DNA of 18,497 nt, taken from Candidatus Thorarchaeota archaeon. GTDB taxonomy: Archaea > Asgardarchaeota > Thorarchaeia > Thorarchaeales > Thorarchaeaceae. Below, one piece after another: positions 4,975 to 12,054 of this stretch. The DNA is taken from assembly GCA_029858305.1 (NCBI GenBank), contig JAOUFI010000043.1, positions 1 through 18,497 of the forward strand, read 5' to 3'. The notes under the pieces are model-generated. The model was not told the DNA's origin, ran no database searches, and was given only the letters and a program-made list of their open reading frames with translations. Position 1 is the stretch's first letter, and every line of letters starts with the position of its first letter. A program made the position numbers and the translations under genes.

Positions 4975-5214
4975 TGATTATCTCTTTTTTTAAAATCATT
5001 AATACCAATGAAGCTTTCCATGATTGATTACAGATTCCCAACATACCCTTCCTTCGTTCCTCGAATTGTGGTTACTGTGTAAAACCACCAAGGTGCCAAG
5101 GATGTCCCAAAGAATTCTTATAGTAGGTATGCATGTAATCTAGTAAATCCGAATACAATCTAATAGGGTTGATGGAATTTACTAACATCATATTAATTGG
5201 AGGTCTTAGAATTC

Positions 5215-5892
5215 ATGTCTCTTAGATTCGAGGAATCGTTATTGATGAGAGAAAAAATGGAGTTGGACGCCAAGCTAAAGAAGCTTCGAAAGGACAAGAA
5301 TGATGACAGAGTCCAGCTTCCAAAAACCGAGCAAGCTAGACTAGACGAGATTAACGAGCTACTGAAGAAGAAAATCATTAGTGTTACAATGACACAGTCA
5401 CTCGTGAATCATATCGATGACTTAGTCAAGGAGCGAGCTGGGCGATCACGTGCTCAAATGATTGAGGATTCAGTTAGATGGTTCCTCGACTTTACAGTGC
5501 ACAAATGGAACGAACGGGGTATCTATGTTAACACCTCAAGAGCAGTATTTGAATCTGAAGCAATATCTTCTCTGTTCTTCTCCAAACTCACCCCTTCTGA
5601 CCAATACGATTTGGGAATCACTGCAGGAGGTCAATCGCCAATTGCTGATGTTGTTCGCTTGATATATGGAGAATCTCCAGAAAATGTTGATAGTCGCGGT
5701 TTAGTCCTGAATCTGCTACAAGATAATGGATGGGGCTCGATATCTATTAATGAACAGGGCTTGATTGTCATTGGTAGTCCATTCTACCCTGCACCTTTCA
5801 TACGAGGTTATCTTGAATCCTTATTTAAGACAAAGCTCAAAGTTGTTGAAACTAATGTGAAAGAGAATGTCGCACTGCAGGTAGTCAAGTAA
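5215..5892 (+). CDS. Ribbon-helix-helix (CopG/MetJ-like) regulator with N-terminal coiled coil and C-terminal V4R/HNOB-like domain
   Basis: RHH pattern IISVTMTQSLVNHIDDLVKERAGRSRAQMIEDSVRWFL and V4R-like motifs YDLGITAG, LQDNGWGSISI and FIRGYLESLF. GGAGGT SD at 5199-5204 favours ATG 5215 over TTG 5197. Confidence 0.7.
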   Translation: MSLRFEESLLMREKMELDAKLKKLRKDKNDDRVQLPKTEQARLDEINELLKKKIISVTMTQSLVNHIDDLVKERAGRSRAQMIEDSVRWFLDFTVHKWNERGIYVNTSRAVFESEAISSLFFSKLTPSDQYDLGITAGGQSPIADVVRLIYGESPENVDSRGLVLNLLQDNGWGSISINEQGLIVIGSPFYPAPFIRGYLESLFKTKLKVVETNVKENVALQVVK

Positions 5893-5933: not shown

Positions 5934-6359
5934 CTACCACTCTTGACCAATCTCGAGAATCTCGAATTCGCTTTCATAAAGCCCTGGAATGCTATTGATC
6001 GTTCGTCTAATATCTGGCTCTTTGGTTCTGATGTCATCCGCAGAGAAATATACTTCATAGATGCATCGATTTTCTTCGAAACAGAATCCTGTTGTGAATA
6101 GTACCTTCAGATCATGATGTTTGAATAACTGAGTCATTGTTTGCATAAGAGCAGGATTGACCTTTTCAACTTCAAGTCTAACCCGCGCACCGCCTTCTTT
6201 TGTCATTGGAATTAATCGAATCTCACCTGATCTCTCGAAGTAGATTACCATAGCGGCCTTTAAGCCTTGCAGGGCTTCATTTTGGAAGAAGTCAGCTGGT
6301 AGTCGAATCTCCTTCTTCCTGTGAACATCTGCTATCATTCCTTTTGTTAGTCCGGCCAC
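5934..6359 (-). CDS. Hypothetical protein, predicted AbrB-like N-terminus with ACT-like C-terminus
   Basis: ADVHRKKEIRLPADF...GEIRLIP resembles a swapped-hairpin AbrB domain. The remainder shows a beta-alpha-beta-beta-alpha-beta pattern. GTG start with GAGGCG SD. Confidence 0.55.
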   Translation of the reverse strand: MAGLTKGMIADVHRKKEIRLPADFFQNEALQGLKAAMVIYFERSGEIRLIPMTKEGGARVRLEVEKVNPALMQTMTQLFKHHDLKVLFTTGFCFEENRCIYEVYFSADDIRTKEPDIRRTINSIPGLYESEFEILEIGQEW

Positions 6360-6463: not shown

Positions 6464-6537
6464 AGCTATCAAAAGTGTTAGAAATCCATAAAACAGGGAG
6501 AGAAATTGGGTTTCTATTGTTTGAAAACAGGAGATAT

Positions 6538-6666
6538 ATGAAAATGGCAAAAGAAGGCCGAATCTATGTTTGTGATATATGTCAGCAAGTGATTGTAGTG
6601 AAGAAGTCCGGAGTAGGAACTTTGGTTTGTTGTGGGCAACCCATGCGACTCTATGAGGATGATTGA
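6538..6666 (+). CDS. Desulforedoxin-type FeS4 iron-binding small protein (desulfoferrodoxin N-terminal domain, stand-alone)
   Basis: MAKEGRIYVCDICQQVIVVKKSGVGTLVCCGQPM matches the CxxC...G.G.L.CCG.PM signature. AGGAG SD at 6529-6533; start is 6538 or 6544. Confidence 0.85.
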   Translation: MKMAKEGRIYVCDICQQVIVVKKSGVGTLVCCGQPMRLYEDD

Positions 6667-6737
6667 ATTTCTTTGACTTTTGCAGCTGGAGAAATCAATA
6701 GTATTATTTCTGAGCTGTTCCTGAACACTTGACAATG

Positions 6738-6779
6738 TTTATATCTACTCTAGCGGGCGAAATCAAAGTTCTCGGGGTG
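6738..6779 (+). promoter_or_regulatory. Putative TATA box (TTTATAT, 6738-6744) and SD (GGGGTG, 6774-6779) of rpo5
   Basis: Canonical archaeal TATA-like box about 45 nt upstream of the ATG; SD 7 nt upstream of the ATG. Confidence 0.5.
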
Positions 6780-6786
6780 TGCTTCC

Positions 6787-7344
6787 ATGTTTGAATTGCC
6801 AAGCCAGGTTGTTAAGACAAGAGGTCTTCTAAATCTTCGTGCATACAAGACCACAGAATTATTGGAGTATGACGATAAGTATGTCATGTATCCGACAAAG
6901 GGAGAAGGCGAGAAAATATCCCGATATGTCGTATGGATCCTCAAAGAACCAAAAGTCATTGGTATTGCATTTGTGAAGGACATTGCCAGTAAGATGGAAG
7001 AAGTTGAAGCACAACGTGGTATGCTTATTGGTGGTCTTCGTTTTACTCCTGCAGCAAAGAAGGAAGCTAGTTCATCTCGAGTTGAACTTATCGAAGGTGG
7101 ATATGCATCTTTTGACTTATTCGAACATGAACTCGTACCACCTCATTCAATTGCCTCAGAAGAAGAGATTGAGCTCGTCTTGAATCACTATAAAATCCAC
7201 AAAACCCAACTCCCGCGAATTAGCCATGATGATCCAGCTGTACGTGTACTTGGTGCTGTTAGTGGTCAAGTATTGAGAATCGAACGAACCAGTGATACTG
7301 CAGGGACTACATACTATTATCGACTTGTTGTTAGAGGCGTGTAG
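6787..7344 (+). CDS. rpo5: DNA-directed RNA polymerase subunit Rpo5/RpoH with RPB5-like N-terminal domain
   Basis: C-terminal signature HELVPPH...EEE...L..Y......LPRI...DP....G...GQVLRIERTSDTAG..YYRLVV, preceded by about 108 aa resembling the eukaryotic RPB5 N-domain. Confidence 0.9.
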   Translation: MFELPSQVVKTRGLLNLRAYKTTELLEYDDKYVMYPTKGEGEKISRYVVWILKEPKVIGIAFVKDIASKMEEVEAQRGMLIGGLRFTPAAKKEASSSRVELIEGGYASFDLFEHELVPPHSIASEEEIELVLNHYKIHKTQLPRISHDDPAVRVLGAVSGQVLRIERTSDTAGTTYYYRLVVRGV

Positions 7345-10527: not shown

Positions 10528-10681
10528 ATCGTCACTCTCACGTCTAGCTTTTACTCGTGGCTCTCTTCTCAAATGTCTTCGTACATTAGATTACTCATTA
10601 AAAACTACAATCTGTTTATTAGTTCAATCAGTAAAGATGCTGTAATATCACTTGAATATCATCCAAGGTCAGGATTGCTTA

Positions 10682-11296
10682 ATGATTGCCATTATCGATT
10701 TTGGGATGGGAAATCTCGGTTCAATCCAGAATATGCTTATTCGGATGGGCTATGAGGCTAAAATCACCTCGGATTTGGATACAATCTCAAACTCTTCCAA
10801 ATTGATACTTCCGGGTGTCGGTGCATTTGACAAAGCGATGTCAAATCTGAAGAATAAAGGATTGATTCCAACACTTAATCATCTTGTGTTTGAGAAGAAA
10901 GTACCAATACTCGGTATATGTCTAGGAATGCAATTACTATCAAATCGAAGTGAAGAAGGTGTATTGGACGGCTTAGGTTGGATTGATTCTGAAACGTTGC
11001 TTTTTAAATTTGATGTTAATGAGAACTTAAGAATCCCGCATATGGGCTGGAACACAATCAGAATCCAAAAGGATTCCTGTTTATTCCACGATATGTTCGA
11101 TGAACCTCGGTTTTATTTTGTACACTCCTTTTATGTCAAATGTAATCATAATGATGATATACTTGCAATGACTGACTACGGATTTGCTTTTGTATCGAGT
11201 ATGAATCGGGATAACATATATGGAGTTCAATTTCATCCCGAAAAGAGTCACAAGTTTGGGATGAAGATCTTAAAAAACTTCGCGGAGCTTTGTTGA
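10682..11296 (+). CDS. hisH: HisH-like glutamine amidotransferase subunit (WbuY/AglY-type) of acetamidino-sugar synthesis
   Basis: Motifs IAIIDFGMGNLGS, ILPGVGAF, GICLGMQ (catalytic Cys), PHMGWN and QFHPEKS. Context beside the N-acetyl sugar amidotransferase indicates the sugar-modification paralog. Confidence 0.9.
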   Translation: MIAIIDFGMGNLGSIQNMLIRMGYEAKITSDLDTISNSSKLILPGVGAFDKAMSNLKNKGLIPTLNHLVFEKKVPILGICLGMQLLSNRSEEGVLDGLGWIDSETLLFKFDVNENLRIPHMGWNTIRIQKDSCLFHDMFDEPRFYFVHSFYVKCNHNDDILAMTDYGFAFVSSMNRDNIYGVQFHPEKSHKFGMKILKNFAELC

Positions 11297-12054
11297 TGCT
11301 TAGGACTAGAGTAATTCCCTGTCTGCTGCTACGCGAGAGAGGCCTTGTAAAAACAGTTCGTTTTAAGAATCCTATCTACGTGGGTGATCCAATTAACGCA
11401 GTACGCATTTTTAATGACAAAGAAGTTGATGAAATAGTATTCTTAGACATTACTGCCACGATTGAAAAAAAACCTCCTCAGTTCGATTTGATTCAAGATA
11501 TCACTACTGAATGCTTTATGCCCTTTGGATATGGTGGCGGCATTCATGATATAGAAACAGCACAGAAACTTCTGAAAATTGGTACTGAAAAGGTGATTTT
11601 TAACTCATCAGCGACAGATCTCGAATTGATAAGGAAAGCTGCTGATGAATTTGGTAGTCAGAGTGTGGTTGTTTCAATTGATGTGAAGCGTTCAAAATTT
11701 TCGACATACCAAGTCTATACTCACTCTGGGACAATGAATACAAAAAAAGATCCTGTTGAATTTGCAAAGGCAGTGGAAGCCGCAGGAGCTGGTGAAATCT
11801 TTTTGAATTCGATTGACCGTGATGGCACAATGGAAGGTTATGATCTCAAACTTATTCAAGCAGTTACATTATCGGTGAATATTCCTGTAGTTGCTTGTGG
11901 AGGGGCAGGGAACTTGGTACACTTCCAAGAAGCAATATTAAAAGGCGGAGCCTCTGCTGTTTCAGCAGGTAGTCTATTTGTTTTCCATGGAACGCATAAA
12001 GCGGTTCTGATTAATTATCCTACCCAAAAAGAATTGAAACAGTATCTACCCTAG
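11296..12054 (+). CDS. hisF2: HisF-like protein (AglZ/HisF2/WbuZ acetamidino modification family)
   Basis: HisF fold motifs (YVGDP, DEIVFLDI, GGGI, SIDRDGT..GYD, ACGGAG). The canonical IPCLD catalytic Asp is replaced (IPCLLL), and it ends AVLINYP. TGATG overlap with hisH. Confidence 0.88.
   Translation: MLRTRVIPCLLLRERGLVKTVRFKNPIYVGDPINAVRIFNDKEVDEIVFLDITATIEKKPPQFDLIQDITTECFMPFGYGGGIHDIETAQKLLKIGTEKVIFNSSATDLELIRKAADEFGSQSVVVSIDVKRSKFSTYQVYTHSGTMNTKKDPVEFAKAVEAAGAGEIFLNSIDRDGTMEGYDLKLIQAVTLSVNIPVVACGGAGNLVHFQEAILKGGASAVSAGSLFVFHGTHKAVLINYPTQKELKQYLP

Follow-up and report, generated by a model that had tools for sequence, protein, structure and literature searches.

Eukaryotic Rpb5 (RPABC1; PF03871 plus PF01191; structures 1dzf, 8uhd_E and 7eu0_E), a subunit common to RNA polymerases (Pol) I, II and III, consists of a catalytically dead PD-(D/E)xK N-terminal module followed by the Rpb5_C domain. 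In 2007, this N-terminal module was reportedly described as one of no more than two typically eukaryotic features common to all three nuclear polymerases. The module is called eukaryotic in PMC1802627, PF03871 is listed as "Eukaryota" in PMC3424549, archaeal RpoH (Rpo5, subunit H) is stated to have the C-terminal domain only (PMC3906176), and canonical rpoH heads the rpoH-rpoB-rpoA cluster (PMC10833476). Here, an rpo5 gene is described that is located at positions 6787–7344 on the plus strand of contig JAOUFI010000043.1 of a Candidatus Thorarchaeota archaeon (GenBank assembly GCA_029858305.1) and encodes an additional domain in front of the archaeal one. The gene likely encodes the functional Rpo5 of this Thorarchaeota-type Asgard archaeon. 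The protein is a long form with two domains, of which the N-terminal one is likely a dead Mrr-type domain homologous by descent to the Rpb5 jaw.

Two other systems are similar in part. The viral Rpb5 homologues of African swine fever virus (ASFV; 8q3b_E and 8q3k_E) are also two-domain proteins and match the predicted structure of the window protein with a TM-score normalized by the query (TMq) of 0.72–0.74, but they show 15% identity and are viral proteins tied to eukaryotic hosts. Rpo13 of Sulfolobales, which lies near the N-terminal part of Rpo5 and contacts double-stranded DNA (PMC13257274), is a functional analogue only: it is likewise an addition made in archaea to this corner of the enzyme, but a separate small subunit from a different lineage. 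A Thorarchaeota Rpo5 was modelled in a subunit complex in the same source, the available text of which discusses only Rpo6 and Rpo8. In the available text of the literature searched, no account of an archaeal Rpo5 with a domain at its N-terminus was found; supplementary tables, such as the lists of eukaryotic signature proteins (ESP) of PMC10307638, lay outside the search and may mention one.

Two-domain Rpo5 of the Thorarchaeota contig

The window analyzed is this whole contig (C19; 18,497 nt), which belongs to an assembly of 3.04 Mb in 205 contigs with a completeness of 88.9%. The 185-aa frame named in the original prediction was found exactly, with an ATG start, and comprises two domains:

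6787–7344, plus strand: rpo5 (rpoH), long form; ATG start, 185 aa plus stop codon; the sole Rpb5_C-bearing gene found in the assembly
6787–7098, plus strand: N-terminal domain, residues 1–104; inactivated Mrr-like PD-(D/E)xK fold, likely a homologue of the N-terminal "jaw" module of eukaryotic Rpb5
7111–7329, plus strand: Rpb5_C/RpoH "assembly" domain, residues 109–181; positions 1–73 of 73 of PF01191

According to the Pfam analysis of the window protein, RNA_pol_Rpb5_C is located at residues 109–181 (E 8e-27, 93.3 bits, cutoff 23.5), and the RpoH equivalog of NCBIfam (NF007129) scored 97.9 bits at a cutoff of 83. The C-terminal domain aligned with Rpo5 of P. furiosus and T. kodakarensis (E about 1e-20). 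The C-terminal 77 residues match canonical archaeal Rpo5 (8cro_H, 4qiw_H, 7ok0_H) at the equivalog level, with 53–56% identity to the Thermococcales chains in Foldseek. The solved archaeal RpoH chains are 77–84 aa long, in agreement with the usual length of about 75–85 aa assumed beforehand, and align to residues 105–184 of the query only. Thus, the window protein belongs to archaeal Rpo5 by its Rpb5_C scores, but it is not a single-domain protein of 75–85 aa. Unlike the canonical single-domain subunit, whose gene is the first in rpoH-rpoB-rpoA, it has 104 additional N-terminal residues that form a folded domain, and its gene stands alone. Residues 46–104 of the full-length protein additionally matched Mrr_cat, marginally but above the cutoff (E 8.4e-5, 23.1 bits, cutoff 21). 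As the Pfam label of this domain is Mrr_cat, the feature escapes annotation pipelines.

The nearest named records were metagenome-assembled genomes of Candidatus Thorarchaeota (97% and 92% protein identity), so the possibility that the contig is not archaeal, which the original prediction had named as one way in which it could fail, did not materialize. The search for relatives gave 252 matches; all 120 listed were 174–212 aa long with a query coverage of 94–99%, and the named ones among these 120 were RpoH of Thor- or Lokiarchaeota, a few being called "RPABC1" by the Joint Genome Institute (JGI) pipeline. In comparison with close orthologues, the dN/dS ratio was 0.024 (dS 0.71) and 0.016 for the N half and 0.021 and 0.034 for the C half, and both halves are under equally strong constraint. 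The equivalog-level C-terminal domain, the single detected copy and the dN/dS of about 0.02 suggest that the protein is a stoichiometric subunit of RNA polymerase (RNAP). Its C half, as the universal archaeal and eukaryotic assembly domain, would dock Rpo5 on the largest RNAP subunit.

The full-length AlphaFold2 (AF2) model, based on a 53-row alignment, had a mean predicted local distance difference test (pLDDT) score of 87.1 and a predicted TM-score (pTM) of 0.68. Its N-terminal domain shows the helix and strand order of a nuclease-type core and is followed by the RpoH fold. In the Foldseek search with this model, ranks 1–34 were occupied by Rpb5-type chains from eukaryotic Pol I–V and ASFV polymerase entries, with TMq values of mostly 0.73–0.82 over approximately 200 columns (8uhd_E: 0.82, root mean square deviation 2.3 Å). 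Archaeal RpoH chains ranked next and covered the C half only (TMq 0.39; TM-score normalized by the target, TMt, 0.9). The two domains are arranged in the model as in Rpb5, although AF2 was trained on Rpb5 structures, which the predicted geometry between the domains may in part reproduce; the pLDDT of the linker block is 68. This circumstance weighs against the proposed homology, together with the points considered below.

Affinity of the N-terminal domain and its lost active site

In the phmmer search, residues 47–181 of the query and residues 72–209 of human/bovine RPB5 formed one unbroken alignment (E about 5e-19) that crosses the domain boundary into the N half and places VVWILKEPKVIGI...FTPAAK opposite ...MTPSAK of RPB5. 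HMMER thereby reproduced the alignment with human RPB5 that had been proposed by eye. When the N half alone was compared with the sequences of the Protein Data Bank (PDB), the sole match was an RPB5 (E = 1). A profile was then built from alignment A1, which contains only the N-terminal domains of the window protein and of 23 Asgard long forms taken from genome loci (24 in total; 16–65% identity to the window protein). Among PDB sequences, the top 11 of the 19 rows obtained at E ≤ 10 were all eukaryotic Rpb5, including those of human (4.6e-9), Arabidopsis (NRPB5A, 1e-8, profile positions 7–96), S. pombe (8.8e-4) and yeast (0.002), and no restriction enzyme or nuclease was found up to E = 10. 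The search of 1.84 billion representative proteins with this profile gave 1301 matches at E ≤ 1e-3. Seven of the best 150 were eukaryote-type Rpb5 with PF03871 over the cutoff (36–135 bits); their E values ranged from 8.9e-12 (P0171, sturgeon) to 4.6e-7 (P0255), and P0222 from sundew was among them. Local hhalign comparison of the Asgard and eukaryotic N-terminal domains resulted in a probability of 98.7% (E 2.5e-16) over 96 columns including helix alpha-1.

The residues of the N-terminal domain were compared in an alignment of 58 archaeal long forms, 7 eukaryotic Rpb5 and 42 Mrr-like proteins, with 6 dead-nuclease proteins without Rpb5_C set apart. Three elements of the window protein are of importance in this comparison:

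6838–6846, plus strand: R18-A19-Y20, corresponding to the (D)RGY motif with which helix alpha-1 ends in eukaryotes
6928–6942, plus strand: strand V48-V49-W50-I51-L52 at the place of the nuclease (Q/E)xK; W50 and L52 replace Q and K
7045–7059, plus strand: T87-P88-A89-A90-K91, aligned to human ...MTPSAK...

The five catalytic columns of the Mrr set contain E (41/42), D (41/42), D (42/42), Q/E (39/42) and K (41/42). Neither the catalytic K nor the catalytic Q/E is present in any of the 58 archaeal long forms or the 7 eukaryotic proteins, in which both positions are hydrophobic instead. The window protein has V8, D29, V33, W50 and L52 at the five columns; the D, Q and K columns are occupied by V33, W50 and L52, and the D...(Q/E)xK motif of active Mrr is lost. 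By its Pfam Mrr_cat match (24.3 bits at a cutoff of 21 for the N half alone) and its PD-(D/E)xK fold (Z 10.6 with 1y88), the domain is nevertheless of the Mrr type. The closest fold match, AF1548, is Mrr-like as well, which could speak for an N-terminal domain that is still an active nuclease, or one reading DNA modifications, fused to Rpo5, for example in defence. This is extremely unlikely, as four of the five catalytic columns are non-catalytic (V8, V33, W50, L52), the Lys is absent in 58 of 58 long forms, and weak matches link the domain to the "inactive restriction endonuclease" family NA-iREase1 of Pfam. The net charge of the domain (+2, pI 8.8) indicates nothing decisive on DNA binding.

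The Arg of RGY was found in all 58 archaeal long forms and all 7 eukaryotic Rpb5, as compared with 16 of the 42 Mrr-like proteins. In the window protein it corresponds to R18, which is invariant in 24/24 and 53/53 aligned archaeal sequences; the profile alignments agree with the earlier remark that LNLRAY echoes the DRGY of RPB5. T87 is conserved in at least 90% of the aligned sequences. According to PMC1802627, DRGY is invariant, the R26E substitution in yeast rpb5 is lethal, and the first helix, made up of the initial 30 residues, is critical in vivo. In the model of the window protein, helix alpha-1 comprises residues 6–17 only, and the motif reads RAY with the Arg retained. By homology, the domain may occupy a lower-jaw position near downstream DNA and may contact DNA or transcription factors there.

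Taken together, the window protein and eukaryotic Rpb5 have the domain order in common, and the whole-chain model overlays at TMq about 0.8. Both have the Arg of (D)RGY, hydrophobic residues in place of QxK, and the stretches P..KVG(I/V) and TP.AK. The window protein differs from Rpb5 in a shorter N-terminal module (about 104 aa versus about 130–140 aa) without the insert after the first helix, which is also shorter, in serving one polymerase and not three, and in an archaeal gene with TATA and Shine-Dalgarno-type signals. It is related to the Rpb5 N-module by profile comparison, but stays below the gathering score of PF03871. With the Mrr catalytic domain (PF04471; AF1548/1y88, MspJI, AspBHI) it shares the fold, the Pfam match and the hhalign similarity given below; unlike Mrr, it has lost the catalytic motif, is fused to an RNAP subunit, and possesses a longer first helix with an invariant Arg.

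A number of results weigh against a specific relationship with Rpb5. PF03871 (Rpb5_N) gave no match to the window protein even at E ≤ 10, while the N half alone, as a single sequence, matched Mrr_cat (3.6e-5) and NA-iREase1. When the 24 N-terminal domains were scanned singly, Mrr_cat was found in 24 of them (best 2.5e-12) and Rpb5_N in five at E ≤ 1 (best 1.7e-5). Over 201 Asgard genomes, PF03871 gave six weak matches at E ≤ 0.01, one of them over the cutoff. In the search of 1.84 billion proteins, some restriction endonucleases ranked above every eukaryote (for example, P0144, 2.5e-16), and many of the best 150 matches were longer proteins without Rpb5_C named restriction endonuclease or Mrr. 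The hhalign similarity of the Asgard domains was stronger with Mrr-like domains (99.6%, E 3.5e-24) than with eukaryotic ones, and that of the eukaryotic domains with Mrr was 97.2% (E 3.6e-11); the eukaryotic and Mrr sets had both been picked as matches of the Asgard profile, which flatters Asgard-centred comparisons. The N-terminal domain modelled alone (AF2 pLDDT 90.7) gave in Foldseek a mixture of EndoMS (top), Rpb5, AF1548 and MspJI with E from 4e-5 to 1e-3. The tree of the N-terminal domains (107 columns) placed the 7 eukaryotes on the Asgard side weakly (SH-aLRT 84), and the approximately unbiased (AU) test did not reject their grouping with the Mrr set (p 0.55).

The similarity of the N-terminal domain to Mrr-type nucleases is therefore equal to or greater than that to Rpb5-N, and since the hhalign and profile matches reach both sides, the archaeal domain looks like a less derived intermediate between them. 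The original prediction was to be abandoned if the domain grouped with Mrr nucleases and lacked specific affinity to RPB5-N; the first part was borne out by the Mrr_cat matches and the failure of Rpb5_N, the second was contradicted by the A1 profile (human 4.6e-9; eukaryotic Rpb5 9e-12 to 5e-7).

In the VIA-align comparison of folds, Z values were 10.6 for AF1548 (1y88), 9.5 for NucS, 8.9 for Arabidopsis NRPB5, 8.2 for AspBHI and 7.9 for ASFV Rpb5. The fold search with the N-terminal domain did not single out Rpb5, as AF1548 and NucS outrank NRPB5, and was dropped as a discriminating test.

These data bear on the possibility that an inactivated Mrr-like domain was joined to the front of Rpo5/Rpb5 twice, once in Asgard archaea and once in eukaryotes, so that the jaws would be related only via the nuclease superfamily. 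Such convergence is improbable. It agrees with the scores of the N-terminal domain, which are lower for eukaryotic Rpb5-N than for Mrr_cat and Mrr-like proteins, with the AU test and with the non-discriminating fold; moreover, raw material was available, because closely related free dead-nuclease proteins without Rpb5_C exist in archaea (the P0186 cluster). But it requires that the same domain order, a similar whole-chain geometry as predicted (TMq about 0.8), the exchange of Q and K for hydrophobic residues and the invariant Arg ending a long first helix arose twice in sister lineages, and the profile of N-terminal domains alone finds Rpb5 and no nuclease among PDB sequences. Under the reading by descent, the N half would be a domesticated, catalytically dead Mrr-type restriction-nuclease domain of common origin with the eukaryotic Rpb5 jaw module.

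The P0186 cluster (196 aa, labelled Bathyarchaeota "restriction endonuclease") and P0176, P0163, P0207, P0217 and P0235 are stand-alone proteins with an N-terminal domain that has no catalytic Lys. In the N-domain tree, these proteins fall among the Rpo5 N-terminal domains and not with the active Mrr set, which makes them candidates for relatives of the domesticated domain that remained free. In addition, P0146 and P0272 (Heimdallarchaeota-labelled, 349 and 498 aa) and frames of 432–500 aa in five genomes (G163, G148, G015, G036 and G178) contain two or three dead-nuclease-like repeats and no Rpb5_C; in these Asgard genomes, the jaw domain may thus have paralogues.

Distribution, copy number and origin of the long form

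The long form is lineage-wide in most Asgard groups and is found in some Bathyarchaeia-labelled records, and it is no peculiarity of this genome. PF01191 was found in 194 of the 201 sampled genomes of the phylum. The window N-terminal domain alone gave a match at E ≤ 1e-3 in 96 of the 201, mostly just upstream of and in frame with Rpb5_C; a few matches fell in frames of 430–500 aa that represent other proteins. Of the 21 Asgard family-level groups examined, 15 were shown by alignment to have the long form (f1, f2, f4–f7, f10, f12, f16, f18, f19, f21, f22, f25 and f27), with N-domain identity down to about 20–35%. Six groups (f3, f8, f9, f13, f15 and f24) have short forms of 79–122 aa; in f11, the N region of a long open reading frame (ORF) did not align, and groups f14, f17, f20, f23 and f26 were left out. 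Named long forms belong to Thor-, Heimdall- (P0121 cluster), Hel- (P0190) and Lokiarchaeota, one cluster has a Bathyarchaeia-labelled member (P0181), and a Bathyarchaeota-labelled contig carries a long form with 41% identity. In several loci (L047 of G127, L048 of G026, L033, L032 and L036), the long-form Rpo5 has an extra acidic or low-complexity C-terminal tail and reaches 208–301 aa in total.

In the tree of C-terminal domains (77 columns), three eukaryotic rows branched outside all 35 archaeal rows (support 97/92), and short forms were scattered among long forms with four changes, most forks being open. That this tree is a polytomy in which the eukaryotes are not resolved within any Asgard group is a further point against the proposed homology by descent. 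Neither the N-domain nor the C-domain tree resolves the branching of eukaryotes or the number of gains and losses of the N-terminal domain. The case for a single archaeal fusion is thus built on the architecture, the predicted geometry and the derived residues held in common, and no resolved tree underlies it.

The distribution and the tree also bear on the possibility that Asgard archaea acquired a full-length Rpb5 gene horizontally, either from a giant virus or from an early eukaryote, and that it replaced their native short rpoH. The location of the gene away from the rpoB operon, as might be expected of a replacement copy, and the two-domain structure of giant-virus homologues such as ASFV 8q3b_E are in line with it. 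The archaeal N-terminal domain, however, is less derived, closer to Mrr and missed by PF03871, and it lacks a stretch of about 15–20 residues that eukaryotes have between the RGY helix and the first strand (a gap in the hhalign alignment). Transfer is also opposed by the long form in 15 of 21 groups at such low N-domain identity and by the position of the eukaryotic rows outside the archaeal ones, and it seems very improbable.

Rpo5 in its short form has the canonical gene order. RpoB was encoded by the next downstream ORF in all nine complete short-form loci, with phmmer scores of at least 1445 bits against a fragment that contains PF00562. Locus L060, a tenth "short" one, is a long form cut by the contig end. 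No RpoB-like ORF was found among the ORFs of loci L001–L051. In five long-form relatives with located rpoB (95–100% complete), exactly one Rpb5_C match, the long one, was present, and rpoB was situated 0.6–1.5 Mb away on the same contig (three genomes) or on another contig (two genomes). In some Asgard genomes (L053:6433-11385 of G012; G041:C5, 1624 aa), the RpoB-bearing ORF was about 1620–1650 aa long as compared with about 1120 aa, which suggests fusion with a neighbouring gene.

The genome scan with PF01191 gave one Rpb5_C match in the window's assembly, which is 88.9% complete, and rpoB (PF00562) was not found in this assembly; the presence of a short rpo5 ahead of rpo2 was therefore checked in relatives only. 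Incompleteness and the lack of rpoB count against the proposed role of the gene, since a second rpo5 could exist in the genome. The alternative, put forward in the original prediction, is a swappable Rpo5 paralogue for a second RNAP form beside a short Rpo5 outside this assembly, namely on the missing rpoB contig where a short rpo5 would sit. At least two Rpb5_C matches were detected in 10 of the 14 same-genus genomes, the window genome and three close relatives (G188, G103 and G191) having one. But the extra copies in relatives are tandem long forms and not short ones, the five relatives with located rpoB have a single, long form, and selection on the window copy is as strong as for an essential subunit. 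A second Rpo5 is unsupported for this genome, and the alternative has very little probability. Tandem pairs of long-form rpo5 about 50–70 nt apart were observed in many genomes of the same genus or family (L010:1501-2706, L018:1501-2696 and other f1 loci).

As the front half of this Rpo5 matches the RPB5 jaw, the jaw part of eukaryotic polymerases probably arose in archaea. It is likely that the Rpb5 jaw is an archaeal Mrr-type domain that was fused to Rpo5 before eukaryogenesis, in the Asgard ancestor or perhaps earlier given the Bathyarchaeia-labelled records, a step accompanied by the departure of rpo5 from the rpoH-rpoB operon; a few lineages would later have lost the domain or never have fixed it. 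On this most economical reading, the fusion would have been inherited by eukaryotes. Should Rpb5 descend from the long form, one more "eukaryote-only" component of the transcription machinery would move into archaea, as Rpb8 did earlier, and the origin of the jaw module could be named: a dead restriction nuclease. In that case, a eukaryote-like lower jaw would be present in Asgard RNAPs already, a possible docking surface for factors or chromatin. The function of the jaw could be tested in a simpler system with a single polymerase, and natural short and long lineages and tandem paralogues are available for comparison.

Putative promoter and neighbourhood of rpo5

Two putative expression signals precede the gene:

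6725–6744, plus strand: conserved putative promoter block ACACTTGACAATGTTTATAT; TATA-like TTTATAT at 6738–6744 with a BRE-like stretch (BRE, TFB recognition element) before it, about 45 nt upstream of the ATG
6774–6779, plus strand: Shine-Dalgarno-like GGGGTG, 7 nt before the ATG

The block ACACTTGACAATGTTTATAT is kept with few substitutions in 13 of 13 Thorarchaeota-type upstream regions, the flanks of which have diverged. Most orthologues have a purine stretch of the GGGGT, GAGGTG or GGGTG type at an equal distance from the start codon, not identical in all 13. Judging by sequence, these elements may function as a promoter and a Shine-Dalgarno site, and rpo5, having left the rpoH-rpoB-rpoA operon, would be transcribed from a conserved TATA promoter of its own. 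The sigma-70 promoter and terminator scan was uninformative for an archaeon and was set aside.

The 18.5-kb contig contains no ORF of RpoB size, and the Pfam analysis of 20 of its ORFs revealed unrelated housekeeping families or no match, so rpo5 is not located directly upstream of rpoB here. The original prediction of an archaeal Rpo5 with an RPB5-type N-terminal domain, encoded outside the rpo operon and equipped with its own TATA box and Shine-Dalgarno site, is supported by these data.

The ORF at 6475–6666 on the plus strand, 120 nt upstream of rpo5, encodes 63 aa and contains the Desulfoferrodoxin N-terminal (desulforedoxin-like) domain (E 5.9e-12). It is preceded by two ORFs without a Pfam match, one of 141 aa on the minus strand (5934–6359) and one of 231 aa on the plus strand (5197–5892). 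In the same-genus loci L010 and L018, a 141-aa minus-strand ORF and an ORF of 167–189 aa occur at an equal relative position upstream of rpo5, and since ORFs of the same size lie at the same places, the neighbourhood of rpo5 appears conserved. Downstream of rpo5, a convergent 254-aa ORF without a Pfam match is followed by MoCF_biosynth, HD and TatD genes. A hisH-like glutamine amidotransferase gene adjoins a hisF-like gene at 10652–12054 (plus strand). The other genes of the contig are housekeeping ones and encode a methyltransferase, GT2, GNAT, a DegT aminotransferase and a T2SSF-like membrane protein.

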